NCBI GenBank assembly: GCA_964645535.1
Contig: CAZYCQ010000032.1
Span: 1-10,847 of the forward strand
Reading direction: 5' to 3'
Length of the DNA stretch: 10,847 nt
From: an uncultured archaeon
Lineage (GTDB): Archaea; Asgardarchaeota; Heimdallarchaeia; Heimdallarchaeales; Kariarchaeaceae
The notes under the pieces are model-generated. The model saw only the letters and a program-made list of their open reading frames with translations. It made no database searches and was not told where the DNA came from. Positions within the stretch are counted from its first letter, which is position 1, and each line of letters opens with the position of its first letter. Positions 1 to 10,847 of the stretch are shown here, piece by piece. A program made the translations under genes and the position numbers.

Positions 1-480
1 TTCCTGGGAGGCAAGCAACCTCAAAGTGAGAAGGGAATCATGATCGAGTTTCTGAATAATTGCCGATTTGCAAACTTCTGTTTTTTCATTCAAGAAAACG
101 TCAATAAGCAATTGTTGATCATCGAGCGACTGTATGCCTTCAAGTCGGACATATTTATTGGTATCCTGTTTGAGAAGTTCCGCAAGTGTTTTCTGGTCTT
201 CGATCTTTGCAATGGCCATTTTGCGTAACCACCAATCAGGGGAAGAAGTGACGACCCTAGCAAGGAGTTCATCTCCATCTAATTTGGATACCGCAAGTTT
301 CCGATTGTCTGCATTTGGATCTGAAAGGGCAATTTCACAGAGGATATGTTGATCAGAAATCTTTTGGATTGCATGGAAGCGAATGATGGAAACTGGATCA
401 TTCAGAGCCAATTGGATAAGATGAGACTGATCTTTAAGTTGATTGATTTCCTTCAGTTTGAGTTTCCAATTCTGGCTCAA
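1..480 (-). CDS. Alpha-solenoid repeat protein (26-aa HEAT/LRV-like repeats), 3' end truncated by the window edge; absent from the ORF track
   Basis: Manual translation of the minus strand from TTG at 480 gives 160 codons without a stop to base 1: MSQNWKLKLKEINQL-KDQSHLIQLALNDPVSIIRFHAIQKI-SDQHILCEIALSDPNADNRKLAVSKL-DGDELLARVVTSSPDWWLRKMAIAKI-EDQKTLAELLKQDTNKYVRLEGIQSL-DDQQLLIDVFLNEKTEVCKSAIIQKL-DHDSLL... This is five exact 26-aa units with consensus DQxxLxxxxxxDxxxxxRxxAIxKL. The start codon is uncertain because the frame stays open upstream into the rpoB end. Confidence 0.85.
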   Translation of the reverse strand, partial: MSQNWKLKLKEINQLKDQSHLIQLALNDPVSIIRFHAIQKISDQHILCEIALSDPNADNRKLAVSKLDGDELLARVVTSSPDWWLRKMAIAKIEDQKTLAELLKQDTNKYVRLEGIQSLDDQQLLIDVFLNEKTEVCKSAIIQKLDHDSLLTLRLLASQE

Positions 481-514
481 TTCAATTATGGGTTGATTTA
501 TGAGATTAAGAAGC

Positions 515-3500
515 TTATGTCTTTTCCGTGAGCCGGATACGAGGGGCAATACCCATTGACATCAATTCTTGCAGAAGGAGCTTGAATGCATAGGAGACGA
601 CAATCTTGCTTACATTGACCTCGTCTCTACAAAGGGGACACTGCATTTTCTCCAGCTTACGATTGTAATAGGCCAAGAAACCGCACTGTTCACAGAATAG
701 CGCTTCTGACTTGTCAGATTCATCCAACAGTCTTTCTTTGAGAACCAAAGCGGTTCCATGCCCGATAAGGCAATCACGTTCCATTTCACCAAATTTCAGA
801 CCACCTTCACGTGATCGACCTTCAGTTGGCTGTCTTGTAAGGATTTGAACGGGGCCTCGAGCTCGTGCATGGATTTTGTCATTCACAAGGTGGTGGAGTT
901 TCTGATAGAATGCGATTCCGATAAAGACATCGGTATCAAGCATTTCTCCAGTACGCCCATCGTACATCAATTCCCTTCCATACCGTTGATATCCCGCAGC
1001 ATGCAAGGCTTCTGTGATGTCATCGACTCTTTCTCCTTCGAATGGCGTTGCGGTAATGAAACGACCAGAAATTGCGGCAAGCTTACCTGCAAGAAGCTCA
1101 ATTAATTGGCCAATTGTCATTCTAGATGGAATGGCATGTGGATTGATAATAAGGTCGGGAGAAAGACCATTCTCGGTGAATGGCATGTCGGCAGGATTGA
1201 CAAGGTTTCCAAGAACTCCTTTCTGTCCATGACGGCTAGCGAATTTGTCACCCAATTCAGGGATTCTAAGAGAACGCATTCTAACTTTAACAAGTTTGTG
1301 ACCTTCCTGTGTTTCAGTCAAGATAACAGAATCGACAATGCCGGATTCCCCGAATCTCATGGCTTGTGAGGTTTCACGTCGTTGTTCGGTTCCAATATCG
1401 AAATCCTGTTGTTCTTCAATAAATCTCGGAGGACTAGTTCGACCAATGATCACTTCACCTTTCTTTCCATCAATAAATGTTTCCGGTTCAACAATTCCGT
1501 CTTCGGCCAAATGTCGATAGACTTCAGGATCCTTGTATCCTCTGACACTATCGTCAGGAATGCAGAATTTGTCTTCCTGTCCACCAGGATATCGACGTTC
1601 TTCGCTGACATATGCTCGGAAGAAAGTTGAGCGTCCCAAGCCACGATCGACAGCACCTTTATTGATGATCAGACCGTCCTCCATGTTGTAACCACCATAT
1701 GAGAGGACTGCGACCACAAAATTCTGTCCAGCGGGTCTTAAGTTGAATTTTATGGCATCGATACCATGTGTTTTCACTATTGGAACTTGTGGATAGTGAA
1801 GGATATGAGCACGGGTATCCATTCTCAGACGGAAGTTTGCTGCATAAATGCCCAATGATTGTTTGGCCATTCCTGCCTCATAGACGTTTCTGTCAGACCG
1901 GTTATGCTCTGGAAAGGGAATGAGTGATGCACAAATCCCGAGAATGGCAGCAGGGGAAATTTCCACATGGGTATGTTCCTTAGTTATGTCATCATAGGTC
2001 AGCGCAATGTAGCAGTTTTCTTCCTCTTCCGTATCGAGGTATTCGATGATTCCTTGACGTGTAAGGTCTCGCCATTGCAGTTCTCCAGAGAGAACACGTT
2101 CAACATGAGATTTGGTGAGAAGAGGACGTCCATCCTTAACAATTATCAAGGGTCTACGGACGCGACCTCTATCAGAATTGATCTGAATCTCCTTGGTTTC
2201 TTCATAGTAAGCCACATTTACACCAGGATCAAAGATACGATTTCTTCGTCCTTGCCTGATCTTATAGACAAGACTCTCCCCATCTGGATGAGTTCCAATG
2301 AAAGCACCATTTAGATAGACTTTTGTCACATTAGGATCACTTTCATTTCCATCAGGATCAACACCAAGTTCATAGGTTTCCTGTCGAACATGATCTTCAT
2401 CTCCTTCGGTGGAGATATAGGCTTGCAGTGCAAGATTTTTCACCAATCCACAATTTGGACCTTCTGGAGTTTCAGAGGGACAGATTTTTCCCCAATGAGT
2501 AGGATGGAGATCCCTTGCCTCGAAATGGGGTTGGGAACGTCCAAGAGGTGAAACAACTCTTCGGAGATGGCTGAGAGATGACATGTAATTTGTTCTATCA
2601 AGTAGTTGGGAAACACCAGCCTTTCCACCTACCCAATTGCCAGTTGCCAAGGCGTGACGGAGTCTTTCAGAAATGACATCGGCACGAACGGCAGTTTTCA
2701 GAATCGAACCCCTGTTTCTGTTGAAATTCCTTTCAAGCTGGTACTTTATATCTCGGATGAGGCTTCGGAAGGCATTTCTGAAAAGCAGAAGCAACAGGTC
2801 CCCAGCCAAATTCAACCGTTTGTTTGCGTAATGGTCTTTATCATCAGGAGATCGTTCACCCGTTTCCATTTCCAAGACTTTCTGAGCCATTTGGCAAAGA
2901 AATATGGCCTTCTTTCTACGATCGGACTTTTCATTGCCAAGATGAGGAAGGAGGTAGCGGTCAAGCACCTGCTGTGTACGACTCATCCGGTATTCTTTTG
3001 TTTGACCCACCGCAACCCGTTTTCCGATGAAATCAAGGGCTTCTTCCTCCTTCCTGACTTCCTCTGCCTGCAAGATTGGCAAGAGTTTGGCTCTAACCTT
3101 TGGAGTGGATCCAATTCTTCTTGCAATTTCACCATCTTTTTCCATACCCAAGGCACGAAGAAGCACAATCAGGGAAATCTTTCTGGCGACACTGGGAAAT
3201 GATACACGAAGATTCCCATCCCTTGCCCTTTCCAAAGTGACAGGTGCACGAAAACCTTTCATGGTCGAAAAGACCTTTGCAAGAGAAGTTGCGGTTTTGT
3301 TTTCAAGCTTCTCAACAAGTATTCGGTTTGGAGCAAGGTCCTCTTGGGTAACCAAAACTCTTTCGGAACCGTTGACAATGAAGTAGCCTCCTTCATCAAG
3401 TGGATCCTCTCCATGTCTGATTTTGGTTTCGTCATCCACACCATAAAGACGGCATTTAATGGAATTCAGCATAATTGGGAGGTGTCCTATGAAAACCTTA

Positions 3501-3919
3501 TCCTTCGGGGTCTTTCTAGTCTCTCCTTGAACTGCATCCGGATACACAGCAGTCATTGTGAGATAAATCGGAGCGGCATAGGTAAGATTCCGAATACGCG
3601 CTTCCATAGGCCAGATTTCAGATCGTGATCCATTGGCCTCTTTAATTTCAGGTTCCCCAACAGAGATTTCCTCAAGGATAACATACATACCCCTATTGTC
3701 TTCAGGGCGGATTTCAGCTTCTTCAGAGACAACTTGGGCAAGACCTTGGGTAATGAAAGAGTTATAGGAATCAAGGTGCTGGCGAACCAATCCAAGATCT
3801 TTGAACATGGCATTAAGGATGACCCACTTATCGTCGGCAGTCAATTGGTAATCTTCATTCAACGGATCCTCCATTTCGTCGAATGAAGAGGAGGAAGAAG
3901 GTGATCGATCAGTCATCAT
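515..3919 (-). CDS. rpoB: DNA-directed RNA polymerase subunit B (Rpo2), unsplit archaeal type
   Basis: 1134 aa with the hallmark motifs GLVRQHLDSYN, GGYFIVNGSERV, ETPEGPNCGLVKNL, GYNMED (metal-B acidic pair), GDKFASRHGQKG, PDLIINPHAIPSRMTIGQ, RQPTEGRSREGGLKFGEMERD, the C-terminal zinc ribbon CEQC...CPLC and YAFKLLLQELMSM. The B'' and B' halves are in one ORF. The start could be 3919, 3916 or 3874. Confidence 0.99.
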   Translation of the reverse strand: MMTDRSPSSSSSFDEMEDPLNEDYQLTADDKWVILNAMFKDLGLVRQHLDSYNSFITQGLAQVVSEEAEIRPEDNRGMYVILEEISVGEPEIKEANGSRSEIWPMEARIRNLTYAAPIYLTMTAVYPDAVQGETRKTPKDKVFIGHLPIMLNSIKCRLYGVDDETKIRHGEDPLDEGGYFIVNGSERVLVTQEDLAPNRILVEKLENKTATSLAKVFSTMKGFRAPVTLERARDGNLRVSFPSVARKISLIVLLRALGMEKDGEIARRIGSTPKVRAKLLPILQAEEVRKEEEALDFIGKRVAVGQTKEYRMSRTQQVLDRYLLPHLGNEKSDRRKKAIFLCQMAQKVLEMETGERSPDDKDHYANKRLNLAGDLLLLLFRNAFRSLIRDIKYQLERNFNRNRGSILKTAVRADVISERLRHALATGNWVGGKAGVSQLLDRTNYMSSLSHLRRVVSPLGRSQPHFEARDLHPTHWGKICPSETPEGPNCGLVKNLALQAYISTEGDEDHVRQETYELGVDPDGNESDPNVTKVYLNGAFIGTHPDGESLVYKIRQGRRNRIFDPGVNVAYYEETKEIQINSDRGRVRRPLIIVKDGRPLLTKSHVERVLSGELQWRDLTRQGIIEYLDTEEEENCYIALTYDDITKEHTHVEISPAAILGICASLIPFPEHNRSDRNVYEAGMAKQSLGIYAANFRLRMDTRAHILHYPQVPIVKTHGIDAIKFNLRPAGQNFVVAVLSYGGYNMEDGLIINKGAVDRGLGRSTFFRAYVSEERRYPGGQEDKFCIPDDSVRGYKDPEVYRHLAEDGIVEPETFIDGKKGEVIIGRTSPPRFIEEQQDFDIGTEQRRETSQAMRFGESGIVDSVILTETQEGHKLVKVRMRSLRIPELGDKFASRHGQKGVLGNLVNPADMPFTENGLSPDLIINPHAIPSRMTIGQLIELLAGKLAAISGRFITATPFEGERVDDITEALHAAGYQRYGRELMYDGRTGEMLDTDVFIGIAFYQKLHHLVNDKIHARARGPVQILTRQPTEGRSREGGLKFGEMERDCLIGHGTALVLKERLLDESDKSEALFCEQCGFLAYYNRKLEKMQCPLCRDEVNVSKIVVSYAFKLLLQELMSMGIAPRIRLTEKT

Positions 3920-3947
3920 ACCTTTTTGAGCGTGTATTTATTTGAAA

Positions 3948-3956
3948 TTAATTAAA
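3948..3956 (-). promoter_or_regulatory. Putative TATA box for rpoB
   Basis: The minus strand reads TTTAATTAA 29-37 nt upstream of the ATG at 3919, a spacing compatible with an archaeal short-leader transcript. The AT-rich context makes this weak evidence. Confidence 0.35.
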
Positions 3957-4127
3957 GGAACAATTTATGAGAATTGGGGTTGAATGACATATTCCTTACA
4001 TCAGTTGAACTTTCCAGTCGTTTTTCGGTACAGACCGGGTTCTACCGGAGTATTGGAAATGAAATTTGTGGATAAATTTGTCCATTTTTCCTTCGTTTGC
4101 TAAAGAAGCATCAGACCTTGAGAGAGG

Positions 4128-4168
4128 GCGAAAATTTTAGAGGAAGATAAAGCAGAGATAATTGAGGA
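4128..4168 (+). promoter_or_regulatory. Putative BRE-TATA (GCGAAAA-TTTTAGAG) and Shine-Dalgarno (GAGGA, 4164-4168) for the TPR-coiled-coil gene
   Basis: A purine-rich CGAAAA is followed by TTTTAGAG about 30-37 nt upstream of TTG 4172, and GAGGA lies just upstream of the start codon. The TATA match is imperfect. Confidence 0.35.
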
Positions 4169-4171
4169 TTT

Positions 4172-6211
4172 TTGACAGTCGATGATTCCATCCATCAACT
4201 CAAGCTTTACATTAATTCAGGGAAATTCATGGATGCTCTTGAGGAAATTAAGAATCTTGAGGAAACAACCCTTCCCTTGGACAAGAGAATAGAAATCGAC
4301 ATTCTTAAAGGAAAATTGTCGCTCGAATTAGGAGAAATTGAGGAAACTCGAAAAATTGTTGAAAGAGTGGTAAAAACTTCAAAAGAAATTAACAAGAATA
4401 CAGTTTTCCTCAAAGTCCTTACGTTGCAAATAGGACTTAATATTTTAGAAGGGAACATCGATCAGGCATTTATTCAAATCGATGAATTTGAACGACGATT
4501 AGAAAAGCTTTTGGATCGTGAAAAAAGAGAATTAGAAGAGGAAATTGGATATCTGCATTATGAGAAAGGGATACTGTATTCGCGGAAAGGCAATTATGAG
4601 ATAGCAATTGAGGAATTCAAGAAATATTACATGGTATGCAAACAGATGAGTTTACGTCGAAATTTTGGATTAACTGCATATCAGTTGGGAGAAATTTTTC
4701 GGCTGATTGGCAAGATTGAGACTGCAACAGATTATTTGATAGAAGCATTGCGTGTTTTTGAGGAGATTGAATATTATGAAGGAATGGCAGCCGTATATAC
4801 TGCATTGGAGGAGATATATCGATATGCAGGGGATACAGATATGGCATTTTCCTACGCCCAGAAAAAGAAGGATTTGGATGCGAATGTTCGTCTGAAGAAT
4901 GAGCTATTGAAATCAACAAGAACGATTACAAGGCTTAATCGCGAAATTGAGCAACTCAATAGGGAAAGGATGGAATTAGAACAGAGAGTGCTAAGTCTTG
5001 AATTCGAATTGAATTCAGATATGAGGAACCTGCAAGGCGATTTAAACGAAAACCTTCTTAGAGAAAGGAAAGAGATGGAGGAATTGAAAAAACTGCTTGA
5101 GGTAAAAGAAAAAGAAATTGAAGCGTTAAGAGAGAAATTGGAGGAGAAAAAAGAAGCGGATAAAAGCGATACGGAAGCAATTACAAGACAGCTACTAGAA
5201 CTTGAAGAAGAGAAGCAGAATCTCATATGGAAATTGGAGGGAAAAGATAAAGAGATTAGAAAGGCAGAAGAGAAAATTTTGTCGCTTGAAAGTTCTTTAA
5301 ACGAGAAGGAATCCAAAATTGAATTCTTGGAGAGAGAGATAGCAAGAAAGGAAGAAGAGATTGAACAGCTGGAAAACCAAATTGCAAAAATAAAGGAGGA
5401 ACATCAAAAAGACATTGATGAGTTGATTCTTGGACAAAAGGAGGAGCTCACCTATTTTGAAAAGAAATTCTTCAACCAGAATAAAGAAATTGAACAGAAA
5501 AACCAGCAAATAGCAGAATTAAGTGAAAAATTGAAGGAATTAGAAAGAGAGAACAATAAACTTGGACAAGAAATTCAGATGGTACGGAATGAACAAAATA
5601 ATGACAAAACAATAGAGCTTCAAAACAAGATCAAGCAATTGGAAACCAAGTTAAGTAAAGTGACACGACAAAAGGATACGATAGAAAACAGATTGGAATC
5701 CCGTGAGTTAGAATTAGCTAATTTTAAAGATAGGATAAGCACTCTTACAACCATGCTTAATGAGAGTGAAAAAGAAAAGGAGCAGGTAGTCTTAGACTTG
5801 AGTTTAGCCATGGAAAGAATTGAAGAACTGAAGCAAGTCATCGAAAACATGAAAGAAGAAAATAAAGAGTTGCAACAAGAAATTCTTGCAACACGAGACA
5901 GAAAAGAGGAACCAGAAGTTCCGGCAACTGCATCTCCAGTGAAAGCCGTTGAGAGAATGCCAATTATGAGAAGCACAGTCCAACAAAGGAAGAGGGAACA
6001 ACTGAAAACCCCAGAGGCTCTCAAGTTGGCGGACAGTGTAGAAGAGGTTTTAGAAATCGAAACGGAGATTAGATTAAGACGGTTGGCAATGAATGCAGGA
6101 ATTGCGCCATTTAAAGCCTTGGAAGCAGTTAAAGAACTGGAAAAGGCAGGGTTGATTGAAATAATTTATTCAGGAAAAGATGATTTGAATCCAATTATTA
6201 AGAAAAGGTGA
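4172..6211 (+). CDS. TPR-repeat / long coiled-coil / C-terminal winged-helix protein, function unknown
   Basis: TTG start. Residues ~1-230 form about six ~40-aa TPRs (e.g. GYLHYEKGILYSRKGNYEIAIEEFKK; GLTAYQLGEIFRLIGKIETATDYLIEAL; AAVYTALEEIYRYAGDTDMAFSYAQK). Residues ~235-578 are a proline-free, E/K/Q/L-rich heptad region. A Pro-containing linker covers ~581-615. Residues ~620-679 show a wHTH-like pattern (IRLRRLAMNAGIAPFKALEAVKELEKAGLIEII). No Walker A/B motifs, so it is not an SMC ATPase. Confidence 0.85.
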   Translation: MTVDDSIHQLKLYINSGKFMDALEEIKNLEETTLPLDKRIEIDILKGKLSLELGEIEETRKIVERVVKTSKEINKNTVFLKVLTLQIGLNILEGNIDQAFIQIDEFERRLEKLLDREKRELEEEIGYLHYEKGILYSRKGNYEIAIEEFKKYYMVCKQMSLRRNFGLTAYQLGEIFRLIGKIETATDYLIEALRVFEEIEYYEGMAAVYTALEEIYRYAGDTDMAFSYAQKKKDLDANVRLKNELLKSTRTITRLNREIEQLNRERMELEQRVLSLEFELNSDMRNLQGDLNENLLRERKEMEELKKLLEVKEKEIEALREKLEEKKEADKSDTEAITRQLLELEEEKQNLIWKLEGKDKEIRKAEEKILSLESSLNEKESKIEFLEREIARKEEEIEQLENQIAKIKEEHQKDIDELILGQKEELTYFEKKFFNQNKEIEQKNQQIAELSEKLKELERENNKLGQEIQMVRNEQNNDKTIELQNKIKQLETKLSKVTRQKDTIENRLESRELELANFKDRISTLTTMLNESEKEKEQVVLDLSLAMERIEELKQVIENMKEENKELQQEILATRDRKEEPEVPATASPVKAVERMPIMRSTVQQRKREQLKTPEALKLADSVEEVLEIETEIRLRRLAMNAGIAPFKALEAVKELEKAGLIEIIYSGKDDLNPIIKKR

Positions 6212-7233
6212 ATATATTCAAATTTGAAAAAAACATGCGAGATACAATGGCTGATGACTATGAACAAGCAAAGCAAGGAAATATAGATGCCATGTTCAGA
6301 TTAGGAAAATCATTCCAAGCGCAGCGGTTTTTTGAACCAGCAATTGAATGGTTAAGCAAGGCGGCGCAATTAGGCCATCATGAAGCAGCACTTCATATTG
6401 CAGATTTGTTCGTCAATCAACAGAAGCTTAATGATGCAGCGAAATGGATTGAAAAGGTACAGGATGACAACACCCTTCTTGCAAAGGAGGTCATAGGCAA
6501 ATACTTTTTCCTCCAAGGGGAAAATGAAAAGGCAGAACAATATTTACTTGATGCATGGAAAAATGGGAGCAGGGAAGCAGCACTTCTGTTAGGAAAGATG
6601 TACGAGCAGCAAGGACAGACAAATGAAGCAATAACGTGGTATGAGAAAGGATTAAAAGAGAATGTAGCAGGAAGCATTCCACATCTCATCAGGTTATTGA
6701 AACAAATGAACTTTGAAGAAATGGTTGATACGTGGATAGACTGGATTATTAAAAATATGGAACTTGATCATTTGAAACAGGTCATTCATGTTCTTTCTGA
6801 ACTAAAAGACCGAGATCGAGTTATTTATTGCCTCAAAGAAGCAGCACGAATGGAAGACCCTGAAGCTTTTGCTAGTCTTGGAATGATTGCATTTGGGGAA
6901 GGACAAATGGAGGAAGCCATCAAATATCTGGAAAATGCCATTGAAAATGGATTGGAGGAGGCCAGAGTAAATCTAGGGGTAGTTTTGATTGAAACTGGAA
7001 AAAAGGAGGAGGGATTGGAGGAACTAGAAAAGGCAGCAAAGATGGGAAATGCGGAAGCAATGTTCAATTTAGGGTTATATCTTGTTGACCAATCCCCTTT
7101 CACTGCATTGAAATGGTTGGAAGAGGCATTGGAGGGAGGGATAGAAGAGGCATTTGATATCATTGAAAAATTGCGTTCAGAAATGGAAAAGGCATATCAG
7201 AAAAAGGACAAAAAATCAGAACAGAATTTCTGA
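6208..7233 (+). CDS. Sel1-like/TPR repeat protein (about nine 32-aa repeats), predicted cytoplasmic
   Basis: Repeats such as GNIDAMFRLG...AIEWLSKAAQLG, GSREAALLLGKMY...AITWYEKG and GNAEAMFNLG...ALKWLEEALEGG. Aromatic residues recur at positions 48/80/112/144/176/240. The GTG start overlaps the upstream TGA (GTGA, 6208-6211). No signal peptide or TM helix is visible. Confidence 0.9.
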   Translation: MNIFKFEKNMRDTMADDYEQAKQGNIDAMFRLGKSFQAQRFFEPAIEWLSKAAQLGHHEAALHIADLFVNQQKLNDAAKWIEKVQDDNTLLAKEVIGKYFFLQGENEKAEQYLLDAWKNGSREAALLLGKMYEQQGQTNEAITWYEKGLKENVAGSIPHLIRLLKQMNFEEMVDTWIDWIIKNMELDHLKQVIHVLSELKDRDRVIYCLKEAARMEDPEAFASLGMIAFGEGQMEEAIKYLENAIENGLEEARVNLGVVLIETGKKEEGLEELEKAAKMGNAEAMFNLGLYLVDQSPFTALKWLEEALEGGIEEAFDIIEKLRSEMEKAYQKKDKKSEQNF

Positions 7234-7251
7234 GAAAGTGGCGTGAAATGA

Positions 7252-7267
7252 TAAACCCTTTTTAATT
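7252..7267 (+). promoter_or_regulatory. Possible internal promoter (TAAACCC-TTTTTAATT) for the GTPase gene, or an oligo-T terminator of the upstream pair
   Basis: A TATA-like TTTTAAT lies about 28-34 nt upstream of ATG 7294. GAGAGGA at 7268-7274 could instead serve as an SD for TTG 7285. Confidence 0.35.
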
Positions 7268-7284
7268 GAGAGGAAACCAATCTA

Positions 7285-8019
7285 TTGTACAATATGACAG
7301 AAACCGTGTCCTTCAAAAGAGATTTAGAAGGGATTCCGACAATTAAGCTTGTAATCTATGGTCCGGCAGAAGCTGGAAAAAGTACTTTATTGGAACTTTA
7401 TTCCATCATTCGCAGAATAGAGAATCCAAGATCCTATTCTGGAAAGTTAGCTTCAGTTAAAAATCCATTTGAAGAAACTGCATTGTTTGATCAGAATACA
7501 TTTGTGGTTGATAGTAAACAAGATAGGCAAGGTCCCTTACTTAAATACATGATCTATGCAGTTGCGGGACAAGATAGATACAAAGAAACCAGGGAAATTG
7601 TGTTGAATGGGTCAGAAGGAGTTTTATTGCTTCTTGATGCCAATAAGGCACAAAAGGATCGAAATCGGAAAATAATCAGAGAATTGAAGGAGTTTCTTGG
7701 AGATAAATTAGGCGTAAATGTTCCAGTGGTTGTTGCCTTGAATAAGATTGACATTAGCAGTGCAATCAGATTCAGCAGGGATGAAATCAATCAAATACTT
7801 CGAGAAGAAGGGCTTGGAGACAAAATTCCATTATTTGAGATATCCTGCCTCGATGCCAAAGATGATCTTTTGGAAATTCTCAAAAAAGAAGACAAGCAAA
7901 GCTATTTCGATGACAACGGCAATTTCAAAAAAGAGATGAGACCAGAGTCCGTTAAAAATCTAATTCGTCCAATCTATGAACTGACAAAACAAGTTATTGA
8001 GAAAAAAACAGGCGCTTAG
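7285..8019 (+). CDS. MglA-like small GTPase (Ras superfamily)
   Basis: G1 KLVIYGPAEAGKST; G2 region GKLASVKNPFEETALFD; MglA-type G3 lacking Asp, YAVAGQ (MglA: YTVPGQ); then IVLNGSEGVLLLLDA; G4 VVALNKID; G5 EISCL. The start is TTG 7285 or ATG 7294. Confidence 0.9.
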   Translation: MYNMTETVSFKRDLEGIPTIKLVIYGPAEAGKSTLLELYSIIRRIENPRSYSGKLASVKNPFEETALFDQNTFVVDSKQDRQGPLLKYMIYAVAGQDRYKETREIVLNGSEGVLLLLDANKAQKDRNRKIIRELKEFLGDKLGVNVPVVVALNKIDISSAIRFSRDEINQILREEGLGDKIPLFEISCLDAKDDLLEILKKEDKQSYFDDNGNFKKEMRPESVKNLIRPIYELTKQVIEKKTGA

Positions 8020-8891
8020 CCAGTGTTAGGACGAAAGATGAGGGTGGGAGAACCATCATCACTGAAATTAATGTCCATGATCCATTGGTTGCCAAATTCA
8101 TCGATAAGAGGGAGTATTTCAGGAGGCAATGTTAAACTACCATCATCAGAAAACAATATTTTTCGTGTGGAGGAAAGGTCAGAGATGTTGACTCCTGCAC
8201 CATGCTCCCCGATCAGACGACCATCAATTAGTTCCAAGGTTCTGTTTGCATGTTTTGCTACATGCTGTGAATGAGTGACAATCAAGAATGCAGTACCCAC
8301 CTCCTTGTGAATATCTTTAAACAAACCCATCAAACGTTCTGAATTCTCATAATCAAGGTTTCCCGTAGGTTCATCTGCCAAGATAAGATTTGGACGGGTA
8401 ATGAGTGCCCTTCCGATCGCGACACGTTGTTTTTCACCACCAGAAAGTTGTGAAGGAAGATTATCTCTTACATGATATATGTCCAAGAGTTTTAACATTT
8501 CATCAGCTAAATAATTTCTTTGGTTTTTTGGAGTTCCAGCAAACTGGAGAGTAAGCATGAGATTTCTTTTTGCAGAGAGGAATGGGATCAGATTTCCTTC
8601 TTGGAATACATATCCCAGAGTTTTCCGTCTGAAATTCACCAAGTCTTCCTCTTCAAGTTCAGATATTATGATGTCTTGAAATTGGACTGTTCCTGCACTT
8701 GGTTTTTGGAGTCCCCCCAATATACGAAGAAGAGTACTTTTTCCGGAACCACTGGTTCCCACAATGGATATAAAATCGTGATGATAGATTTCTAGATTTA
8801 TTCCATGAAGTGCAACCACATTTGAAGCCTTGTCCTTTCCCCGATAAATCGCGTAAACGTTTTTTGCAGTCATTAATTTTTTATCATCCAT
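8016..8891 (-). CDS. ABC transporter ATP-binding protein, LolD/MacB/SalX family, with C-terminal AbrB/MazE-like extension
   Basis: Walker [11 protein letters not shown]-loop GYVFQ, signature [15 protein letters not shown], Walker B/D-loop [12 protein letters not shown]-loop IVTHS. An SD-like AAGGAGTGA overlaps the permease stop, 7 nt upstream of the ATG. Confidence 0.96.
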
Positions 8892-8898
8892 TTTTCAA

Positions 8899-10847
8899 TC
8901 ACTCCTTCGTCGAAATAGTCAAGTCTTGGTTGATTGCATGTCGAGCACTAAGAAGAACTGAAAAGACAACGCCTATGATGATGATTGCAGAATTGAAGAA
9001 AATCAAAAGTGGATCTATTACCACATACCTCGGAATTGTAATTCCCAATAATAATTGCTTAATGAAACCAAAAAATCCATTGATCAAGAAGGAAAGACCA
9101 ATACCTATTAGATTAGCCAATAATGTTGCAATGAAGACAATCAAGAAATTTTCTCCAAAAATAACAAGATAAAGCTGGCGTGGGGTTGCGCCCAGTGTTT
9201 GAAATATTGCGAAATCTTGTTTTCTCTTTTCAACAAGAACGGCTGAGAAAGTAAAGGCACCAATGAAGGCCATTATCAGCGAAGTCAAATACATTAGATT
9301 GAGAATGCCTGAAATTCCAAACTGATCTTCTGATTTTGCTGTTTTTAATTCTGTTTGAAGACCGATAACTTCTGCAACATCAGGAAGTTTTTCAAGTTCT
9401 TTCATGACAAGAGCTTCATTGTTTGAATCGTCTAACTTCACCAGATAATCGGAAGCATTCAAGCCAGATTTGGGTGAAATCAGGGAAGTTATGCTTTGGA
9501 TGGTTTTCAATGATGTGATTCCTGCTGTCGAAGGAATTCCTCCAGGAGCAAATTCAAAGATACCTGCAATGGTTACATTATATCGGATAATTGTTGAATG
9601 ATTGTTTTCAGATTGAAATTTCACCGAAATAACATCCCCCTTTCCTACGTCGAGGATCTCTGCAGCAGTTCTGCCCAAGAGTACAAAGTTGTCATTTTTC
9701 TCCATCTGAACGAAAAGGGACGGATCAATTGCTCTTGGATCCCAATTAAGGAATTGTAGAAATGACGAATTCATTGCAAAAAGGGATCCGCGATAACTCA
9801 AAACCCTCAACGGTTTTTTGATGATAGGGGTGAATTGTTTGATGTGGGATATGGGTCTCAATTGGTCAGAATAATTTCCTTCTTCTGAAAAGACAATCTT
9901 GATATCTGCACCCACATTGAATTTGACCATTGCTTCTTTTTGAGCTAGATCAGTACGCCCTTGGATTGATGCAATGGAAACAATAGAAATGGCAAGAACC
10001 AAGATAATAATGAGATGTTTCGCGTCGCCACGACGTTTTAACCCGCTTTTAATTATCAGACCGACATTTTTCAGTTTGGGAAGATTGACAAATTGATTTT
10101 CAAATCTTTCAGAAAGAGTTTGAACCAACCGGCCAGATGCGGTAATACCACCTATCCAAAGCGCAGGCAAGGCAAACATTCGAAGGAGGAGGTCATTGAC
10201 AAAGAAATTTTCCAAAGGAGGAATAAATTTAATGGATTGCAGTATAACAACAAAAGCCGCAAAGCCACCATAAATCAACAATATCAGATCGATGTTGTTC
10301 CTTGCAATGAAACCTAATTTTTCTTCGGAATACAATTGGATACCGGAATAGATTTCCTCTTTAATGAACTGTTTGGCTTTTTTCTGAATGGCAAGTAACA
10401 TGGTAAAAAAAGGGATTATTGAAGCAATCAAGACAAACTGAACATTTGCATCTATAAAAGGGGCGATTAGGTGCCAATTGAAGGATAAAAAGCCTGATGA
10501 CGCAATAATCAGCCATACAGAAAGATTTGCACCAAGGAAACCAATCATGGATGCAATGAGAAATACCAATAACCCCTCTCGACGGATACCTGAGAGAATT
10601 TGGTCAGAATAAGCACCTTGAACTTTAAAAATCGCAATTTCCTGCCTTCTTTCTTCAAGAGAGAGGGTGAGACCAAATATTAGAAGATAAATGGCCAAAA
10701 CCACAAGAGGAAGTAAAACTACGATATCAAAGAACATAAGAAAGAACATGGTGAGTTGAAAAGGTGCAGTCAAGGTTTCAATTTCATTGGTACCGATCAC
10801 ATTGTCACCAGAAATTCGACTGACATCATTGATCAATTCCTGTATTT
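8899..10847 (-). CDS. ABC transporter permease, FtsX/MacB family with two FtsX domains; 5' end lies outside the window
   Basis: Two FtsX signatures (SLEERRQEIAIFKVQGAYSDQI and VLVEKRKQDFAIFQTLGATPRQL), multiple TM segments, and an extracellular domain with LGRTAAEILDVGKGDVI. The frame is open beyond the track's TTG (10836) to the window edge, so the true start is probably upstream. Confidence 0.93.
   Translation of the reverse strand, partial: IQELINDVSRISGDNVIGTNEIETLTAPFQLTMFFLMFFDIVVLLPLVVLAIYLLIFGLTLSLEERRQEIAIFKVQGAYSDQILSGIRREGLLVFLIASMIGFLGANLSVWLIIASSGFLSFNWHLIAPFIDANVQFVLIASIIPFFTMLLAIQKKAKQFIKEEIYSGIQLYSEEKLGFIARNNIDLILLIYGGFAAFVVILQSIKFIPPLENFFVNDLLLRMFALPALWIGGITASGRLVQTLSERFENQFVNLPKLKNVGLIIKSGLKRRGDAKHLIIILVLAISIVSIASIQGRTDLAQKEAMVKFNVGADIKIVFSEEGNYSDQLRPISHIKQFTPIIKKPLRVLSYRGSLFAMNSSFLQFLNWDPRAIDPSLFVQMEKNDNFVLLGRTAAEILDVGKGDVISVKFQSENNHSTIIRYNVTIAGIFEFAPGGIPSTAGITSLKTIQSITSLISPKSGLNASDYLVKLDDSNNEALVMKELEKLPDVAEVIGLQTELKTAKSEDQFGISGILNLMYLTSLIMAFIGAFTFSAVLVEKRKQDFAIFQTLGATPRQLYLVIFGENFLIVFIATLLANLIGIGLSFLINGFFGFIKQLLLGITIPRYVVIDPLLIFFNSAIIIIGVVFSVLLSARHAINQDLTISTKE

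Follow-up and report, generated by a model that had tools for sequence, protein, structure and literature searches.

A three-gene neighbourhood around an MglA-like GTPase with glutamate at the arginine-finger position in a Heimdall-group archaeal family

Introduction

The closest described parallels to the genes presented here are the MglA GTPase systems of bacteria. The genes form a trio at positions 4172 to 8019 of a 10,847-nucleotide stretch of DNA from a Heimdall-group archaeon (GenBank assembly GCA_964645535.1, contig CAZYCQ010000032.1, positions 1 to 10,847; the whole stretch is called the window), and they encode a tetratricopeptide-repeat (TPR) and coiled-coil protein (the rod), a Sel1/TPR solenoid protein and a long-form MglA-like GTPase (type W). 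In the canonical systems the roadblock protein MglB, a GTPase-activating protein (GAP), acts by positioning the intrinsic arginine of MglA together with the catalytic glutamine (PMC3199381, PMC4316618). Some mglA genes are orphans (59 of 449; PMC4316618), and Asgard archaea are on record as having MglA-like GTPases (PMC10933270; bioRxiv 10.1101/2024.02.28.582541). That bacterial MglA acts through TPR partners, as stated in a preliminary description of the window, has been shown experimentally (PMC3983030, PMC7519303). MglA of Bdellovibrio bacteriovorus (Bd3734) carries Ser21 and lacks an MglB; it binds the 353-residue TPR protein Bd2492 in a 1:1 complex (PMC3983030). MglA of Myxococcus xanthus works with the TPR effector SgmX and the coiled-coil partner AglZ (PMC7519303, PMC7668184). 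The literature searched did not describe any MglA paralogue whose finger position is glutamate, nor its linkage to Sel1 and rod genes.

The Bdellovibrio pair resembles the trio in having no adjacent MglB, a non-glycine residue at the position equivalent to Gly12 of Ras, and a TPR partner of about 350 residues; the Sel1/TPR protein, at 328-341 residues, is similar in size to Bd2492, and its pairing with the GTPase is a prediction from gene neighbourhood and phyletic pattern. Unlike type W, however, Bdellovibrio MglA is of the short form and keeps its arginine finger; bd2492 lies in the tamAB operon and not beside mglA, whereas the Sel1 gene stands beside that of the GTPase; and the setting is that of a bacterium, its type IV pilus and predation, as opposed to an archaeon. 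The Myxococcus system can be likened to the trio by its parts list (a switch, a TPR effector and a long coiled coil), but its MglA has the arginine finger and is coupled to the roadblock GAP MglB, the genes for its partners are scattered over the genome, and neither SgmX nor AglZ has the architecture of the rod, which joins TPRs, a coiled coil and a winged helix in one chain. With the canonical MglA-MglB structures (Thermus 3T12/3T1Q, Myxococcus 6IZW), type W shares the fold, a G3 motif of the form xVxGQ without the Walker-B aspartate and the alignment of switch I (PMC3199381, PMC4316618), while it departs from them in its finger glutamate, some 50 additional residues at the C-terminus and the lack of a roadblock gene on its contig. 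Among the features that define group 1 MglA (PMC4316618, PMC3199381), it has the fold and the G3 motif, and it lacks the arginine finger and an mglB gene within four genes.

We tentatively propose, in a case that falls a little short of evenly balanced, that the trio is a module formed around an MglA paralogue in a Heimdall-group family, young and restricted to its lineage, in which the Sel1/TPR protein is the likely direct partner of the GTPase and the rod a possible scaffold. By analogy with the bacterial systems, the trio is best read as something that may work like an MglA-TPR effector pair without being a member of those systems.

Results and discussion

Three genes conserved in relatives

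The window comprises the first 10.8 kb of the 38.8-kb contig C32 of a 3.6-Mb metagenome-assembled genome that is 89% complete (G000, the own genome). In the handles used below, C-numbers are contigs, L-numbers loci, G-numbers reference genomes and P-numbers protein cluster representatives; g1-g5 are genera and f1-f4 families of the relatives compared. The open reading frames (ORFs) of the trio, with their alternative starts, are as follows:

4172-6211, plus strand: rod ORF, 679 residues
6208-7233, plus strand: Sel1/TPR ORF at its longest, 341 residues, opened by GTG 6208
6247-7233, plus strand: Sel1/TPR gene from ATG 6247, 328 residues, start taken from the alignment of orthologues
7285-8019, plus strand: MglA-like GTPase ORF from TTG 7285, 244 residues
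7294-8019, plus strand: type W GTPase gene from ATG 7294, the database gene call, 241 residues

The three proteins are kept in relatives at 24-75% amino-acid identity, and this conservation leads us to regard the genes as real. All three are predicted to be soluble (maximum Kyte-Doolittle 19-residue mean below 1.3). The preliminary description had read here three co-oriented genes for soluble proteins, namely a rod of TPRs, coiled coil and winged helix, a Sel1 solenoid and an MglA-like GTPase with no roadblock partner alongside, and each of these points is borne out by the searches and models described below.

Type W is an MglA paralogue with glutamate at the finger position

The four top matches of the GTPase in a phmmer search of the Protein Data Bank (PDB) are MglA proteins (E 3e-11 to 2e-9), as are all of the top 13 Foldseek matches listed for its AlphaFold model (predicted local distance difference test, pLDDT, 85; target TM up to 0.87); Rab, Ran and Arf rank lower by sequence and by structure. 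Its motifs are G1 GPAEAGKS, switch I NPFEET, G3 AVAGQ and G4 NKID, and a helical extension of about 50 residues follows at the C-terminus. The G3 motif is without the conserved aspartate (the TVPGQ type) and keeps the catalytic glutamine, and the form xVAGQ recurs throughout type W. In the HMMER alignment the second glutamate of NPFEET (codon 7474-7476) falls on the arginine finger of MglA (DRT). This glutamate is invariant in all eight aligned type W sequences (NPxEET) and is also found in P0014 and P0016; G1, the G2 threonine, the G3 Gly-Gln, G4 and G5 are likewise invariant across the eight despite identities of 42-75%. The aligned motifs show that type W keeps the full predicted set of nucleotide-binding motifs and the catalytic glutamine, with glutamate in place of the arginine finger. 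Because the finger arginine is replaced, a GAP mechanism of the roadblock type should not apply to type W.

The own genome holds three MglA-like genes: the window copy, a long copy on C37 (45% identity) and a short copy on C19. The short MglA (189 residues) is encoded directly after a roadblock gene, and the two form a canonical pair. A Robl_LC7 search of the genome returned five roadblock genes, on C19 (two), C50, C81 and C27, with none on C32, and none was seen in any trio locus. Most of the 40 relatives have one short MglA and two long-form genes. Tabulation of the motifs separates these proteins as follows:

Short MglA and type L: GxSLAGKT, DPSGRT, VAGQ
Second long-form copy of families f2 and f3: TxPGE, with Gln changed to Glu
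f4 lineage: without the Arg and without the Gln
Type W: NPxEET, xVAGQ

Short MglA and type L keep the GRT arginine finger, and neither type L nor the derived second copies of f2, f3 and f4 have rod or Sel1 genes as neighbours. To the extent that motifs can tell, catalytic residues have drifted repeatedly in the long-form family. Further long-form MglA-like proteins that lack both finger and glutamine are encoded at L089:127-834 and L090:973-1728 and represented by P0030, P0031 and P0035 (for example SPSGST with ATAGG).

Type W is restricted to two genera and accompanied by the same two genes

Type W is present in all four g1 genomes, in the single g5 genome and on a few metagenome contigs, and searches of the family's remaining seven genomes (63-94% complete) did not find it. 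An exhaustive profile search of 1.84 billion representative proteins gave 12 cluster representatives at E <= 1e-30, and among its 16 top-ranked representatives with tabulated motifs three carried NPxEET; a search of genome contigs with the GTPase recovered two distant loci only. A remote relative of type W, P0025 (L100:9949-12144), has NPARET in switch I and VAGE at G3. Its gene is convergent with one for a TPR_12 protein of another architecture, which is not a rod orthologue, and no Sel1 gene is adjacent.

In a careful maximum-likelihood (ML) tree the type W sequences form a single fast-evolving clade (100/99), whose stem measures about 1 substitution per site. The same tree places it inside the type L clade of f1 (100/100), beside the type L genes of the two genera that carry type W; when further long-branch sequences were included, a second tree put it outside type L, and in an approximately unbiased (AU) test the monophyly of type L was not rejected (p = 0.11). 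On these trees type W may have arisen by recent duplication, or it may be an older paralogue that evolves fast.

In all five reference genomes with type W, and on the metagenome contigs, the trio is syntenic at every readable locus. The three genes are adjacent in G000, G001, G002, G003, G007, L028-L030 and L099, and L031 and L101 show part of the trio; the order follows one of three arrangements, here written with rpoB on the right:

Arrangement A: GTPase(-) Sel1(-) rod(-) rpoB(+); G000, G002, G001 and L028-L030, with L031 partial
Arrangement B: Sel1(-) rod(+) GTPase(-) rpoB(+); G003
Arrangement C: Sel1(+) GTPase(+) rod(-) rpoB(+); G007, L099 and L101

The pair formed by the Sel1 gene and then the GTPase gene is inverted as a unit between A (g1) and C (g5), and two of the three arrangements have Sel1 directly 5' of the GTPase, with both on the same strand. 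The far flank differs, with an amino-acid permease gene in g1 and NrfD in g5. Conservation of the trio among Asgard archaea, which the preliminary description had proposed to check, holds for five of five genomes with this paralogue and was found only in two genera of one family rather than Asgard-wide. A conserved 79-residue ORF with no Pfam match lies directly 5' of Sel1 in the g5-type loci (L099:1772-2011, L101:2932-3171) and is absent from the arrangement of the window.

The Sel1/TPR protein shares its phyletic pattern with type W

Pfam scores for the Sel1/TPR protein are 57.5 bits for TPR_16, 53.3 for TPR_2 and 32.6 for Sel1 (cut-off 30.7), and its sequence matches in the PDB include the Sel1-repeat entries 6ok3 and 8sxq as well as consensus-TPR proteins. 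Five orthologues, 24-57% identical, have typical Sel1-like repeats in common and 32 invariant columns; among the invariant features is an N-terminal FQxxRF motif (Arg codon 6325-6327). When 41 genomes were searched, strong matches came from three congeneric genomes (E 5e-85 to 3e-28), and the match in G007 was weak (3e-7) and adjoins the GTPase gene of that genome. The remaining matches (E >= 1e-13) are ORFs of about 311-372 residues, mostly an order-wide paralogue of the C5 type. Across these genomes, the Sel1 gene and type W were found only together.

In G001 (L010:384-1353, G001:C136) the orthologue is split into overlapping ORFs, 384-944 and 940-1353, through a frameshift or an assembly error. 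We also considered the Sel1 paralogue at C5:17771-18799 of the own genome, which lies two genes from a Rab-like GTPase, and set this proximity aside as chance, as it is not kept in G003, G012, G026 or G035.

The rod combines a TPR head, a long coiled coil and a winged helix

The rod (679 residues, 80 kDa, isoelectric point (pI) 5.1) was modelled with AlphaFold on ten orthologues, and its parts are as follows:

Residues 1-220: KLC/LGN-like TPR head (Pfam TPR_12, AlphaFold model, Foldseek)
Residues 222-576, approximately: heptad coiled coil (AlphaFold model, heptad analysis)
Residues 577-604: disordered linker (AlphaFold model)
Residues 605-679, nucleotides 5984-6208: winged helix (AlphaFold model, structural neighbours)

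The head is modelled as a 12-helix solenoid (residues 1-220, pLDDT 83-96), and Foldseek matches it to the TPR domains of BtubC, LGN/Pins and kinesin light chain (KLC). Residues 222-576 are helical with two short breaks; from 236 to 576 there is no proline, and heptad periodicity reaches z = 11 against shuffled sequences. At 0.15 nm per residue, the coiled coil is estimated to be roughly 50 nm long.

The C-terminal domain (605-679) has the topology H-beta-H-H-beta-beta, with pLDDT 72-85 for residues 614-678. Direct searches of Pfam and of PDB sequences gave no match for it, and its identity as a winged helix rests on a paralogue and on predicted structure. Structural neighbours of residues 600-679 in the Atlas are HTH_24, MarR, TrmB and the Cdc6 WHD (TM 0.66-0.75), and a coiled-coil protein of about 260 residues ends in a homologous domain. 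Searches of 47 genomes matched this protein in 42, and in most genomes of the order there was a single match. The copy of this protein in the own genome (C37:24280-25053) scores above the cut-off for PF25212, and HVO_A0114, MarR, TrmB and DUF7310 are among its matches; a further such gene is at L046:877-1662, and in G015 the gene follows radA. The winged helix of the rod has a pI of 5.1, with 11 basic and 13 acidic residues. Among orthologues the pI varies between 4.8 and 9.8, with no consistent basic surface across them. The acidity of the domain here does not by itself point to DNA binding.

The reach of the rod is wider than that of the other two proteins. Orthologues in g2 and g4 (reciprocal-best) and in g3 (best full-length match) stand alone, next to MFS, PALP, CNNM, nickel-insertion and methyltransferase genes; judged by this distribution, the rod is older than the Sel1-GTPase pair.

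Gene starts and transcription signals

The preliminary description had taken the GTGA overlap of the rod and Sel1 ORFs as a sign of translational coupling. The overlap is present at 6208-6211, but the first methionine of the Sel1 orthologues aligns with ATG 6247 and L028 has an in-frame stop directly 5' of the equivalent ATG, so coupling by overlap is unsupported. The overlap is probably an artefact of ORF extension, coupling is unlikely, and the gap between the two genes is likely to be about 35 nt here, compared with 43-46 nt in relatives. The gap between the Sel1 and GTPase genes, given earlier as 51 nt, has this value when counted to TTG 7285 and is 60 nt when counted to the database start, ATG 7294.

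Putative promoter elements were noted at two positions:

4131..4139, plus strand: TATA-like element AAAATTTTA, about 35 nt 5' of the rod start
7259..7266, plus strand: TATA-like box TTTTTAAT, 27-30 nt 5' of GTPase ATG 7294

The motif GAAAATTTTAGAG is conserved 5' of the rod gene in the window, L028 and L033, and the motif AATAAAyCyTTTTTAAT before the GTPase gene stands at an unchanged position in the window, L028 and L031, with a similar motif in L033, four loci of the genus in all. A promoter of the GTPase's own near 7260, which the preliminary description had named as a finding that would tell against a joint system, thus corresponds to a conserved box whose promoter role is presumptive. RNA sequencing runs were sought for evidence of co-transcription, and none was listed; the window sequence was found only in DNA runs, from one hot-spring metagenome study.

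A possible partner relationship and its alternatives

The conserved neighbourhood makes a functional linkage of the three genes plausible. In the module that we tentatively favour, the GTPase would no longer cycle via a roadblock GAP, and would either remain GTP-bound for long or depend on a new partner. The Sel1/TPR protein would be the most likely direct partner, as effector or regulator, by analogy with Bd2492 and SgmX; it is preferred because it was found only in genomes with type W and because of its place immediately upstream of the GTPase in most arrangements. With less assurance, the rod would be a dimer-prone coiled coil with a peptide-binding TPR head that could serve as a scaffold for the Sel1-GTPase pair, and its acidic winged helix would probably bind protein. 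Such a module would give nucleotide-dependent localisation or tethering.

A number of observations weigh against this proposal. In G003 the rod gene lies between the Sel1 and GTPase genes, and the trio is spread over different strands; the rod is solitary in sister genera; an AT-rich TATA-like element precedes each of the three genes, which makes separate promoters plausible; and the four orphan roadblock genes elsewhere in the own genome leave room for a distant partner, so that the earlier remark on the missing roadblock holds for the neighbourhood and not for the genome, where a canonical MglA-roadblock pair is also encoded. Moreover, the Ser/Ala at the Ras-G12-equivalent position is common to type W and the roadblock-coupled short MglA, and for this reason it is no argument for a GTP-locked state. 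Every trio locus is adjacent to rpoB. The loci therefore descend from one ancestral region, their adjacency may be synteny inherited in a narrow clade, and on this account the synteny is moderate rather than strong evidence of functional linkage. The three genes could then be unrelated neighbours in a block inherited beside rpoB in a shallow clade and shuffled by local inversions. The separate promoter-like elements, the lack of a conserved start/stop overlap and the lone rod genes fit this explanation, as do the synteny of a wider stretch within g1 (amino-acid permease, trio and rpoB) and the abundance of TPR proteins in these genomes. It is the main rival, and we consider it somewhat less likely than the module, since the trio is contiguous in g1 and g5 at protein identities of 24-44% while the far flank has changed, the phyletic pattern of Sel1 is that of the GTPase paralogue in the 41 genomes, and the Sel1 and GTPase genes were turned round together. 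The roles assigned in the preliminary description, with the rod as effector and Sel1 as adaptor or regulator, gain from the synteny of the trio and lose by the solitary rods and the possibly inherited order beside rpoB.

It is improbable that the Sel1/TPR protein is a new class of regulator, either a GAP giving an arginine in trans or an effector of the GTP state, which was acquired after the finger arginine changed to glutamate and forms with the GTPase a pair that controls the roughly 50-nm rod; such an arrangement would be an independent, Asgard-born, GTPase-regulated coiled-coil tether. In the GAP version, to which we give only a small chance, the arginine of FQxxRF would be the candidate that serves the fingerless GTPase, and the rod would be the effector of the GTP-bound form. 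The loss of the intrinsic arginine from a protein that keeps its catalytic glutamine and every G motif would suit this idea, as would an arginine invariant in five such divergent Sel1 orthologues and the joint occurrence of the two genes. The idea is nevertheless purely inferential: no GAP of TPR or Sel1 type for a Ras-like GTPase was found in the literature searched, one invariant arginine among 32 invariant columns is not specific, and the finger glutamate is equally compatible with abandoned hydrolysis. In a further alternative the GTPase would be a pseudo-switch, a structural subunit that is nucleotide-locked or catalytically degenerate, as part of the catalytic drift of the long form. Sister long-form lineages have independently changed Gln to Glu (TxPGE, f2/f3) or, in f4 and metagenome clusters, retain neither the Arg nor the Gln, and type W sits on a long branch; even so, we regard this outcome as very unlikely, as the invariance of G1, the G2 threonine, the G3 Gly-Gln, G4 and G5 at 42-75% identity speaks for maintained nucleotide chemistry.

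The preliminary description had also raised the possibility of a precursor or analogue of eukaryotic GTPase-tether systems. Only the general logic of Arf/Arl/Rab with golgins or EEA1 is alike, that is, a small GTPase and a long coiled coil with terminal interaction domains. The GTPase of the trio belongs to the MglA family and not to Arf/Arl/Rab; the rod ends in TPRs and a winged helix instead of GRIP, GRAB or Rab-binding domains, none of which Pfam finds in it; and no membrane-anchoring feature was identified in the trio. Nothing supports descent of eukaryotic tethers from the trio, which does not look like their precursor. As the trio was found in two genera only and neither its GTPase nor its rod belongs to the tether families, it is an analogue of eukaryotic tether systems at best, and with its narrow range and MglA ancestry it can tell us little of how eukaryotic trafficking arose. 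It may serve instead as an example of prokaryotic Ras-like switches acquiring new partners. Asgard archaea have many small GTPases, very few of them with a predictable partner; for this MglA paralogue, gene neighbourhood and phyletic pattern name two candidates, the change of arginine finger to glutamate predicts altered regulation, and the trio makes a compact three-protein set for pull-down, GTPase and structure experiments.

Neighbouring genes and other GTPase loci

The trio is flanked in the window by the following genes:

1-549, minus strand: HEAT-repeat gene
515-3919, minus strand: rpoB, archaeal, unsplit
8016-8891, minus strand: ABC ATPase gene
8899-10845, minus strand: FtsX/MacB-type permease gene

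No RNA genes were found in the window by Rfam and tRNA scans. The HEAT-repeat gene follows rpoB and overlaps its 3' end by 35 nt. On the 5' side of rpoB is the divergent rod gene and not rpoH, a layout that is identical in L028, and rpoB is apart from rpoA1, which is on contig C9 (G000:C9:15800-16783).

At the other end of the trio, the GTPase gene is convergent with the ABC ATPase gene, and their stop codons overlap by 4 nt (8016-8019). The cassette to which the latter belongs (ATPase, permease and second ATPase) is missing from the closely related L031, a sign that it was inserted or deleted recently. A functional link between GTPase and ABC transporter was considered, as the window GTPase and its C37 paralogue both adjoin an ABC ATPase plus permease. 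It was rejected in view of more than 60 ABC ATPase matches in the genome, the 30% identity of the two ATPases and the cassette-free L031.

Among the relatives, the TxPGE copies of f2 and f3 (L038:14965-18138, L039:13979-17039, L104:6105-9217) adjoin a gene for a membrane-anchored protein of about 740 residues, in what looks like a separate conserved GTPase neighbourhood; the two f2 copies have an HExxH motif, and beside them are an FtsX-type ABC transporter and a transmembrane protein. The Gln-to-Glu GTPase gene of G015 is followed by one for an actin-like protein (ALP_N and MreB-like_C; L038:18256-19302), and a 339-residue Arf-family GTPase is encoded near the type L copy (L038:3622-4641).

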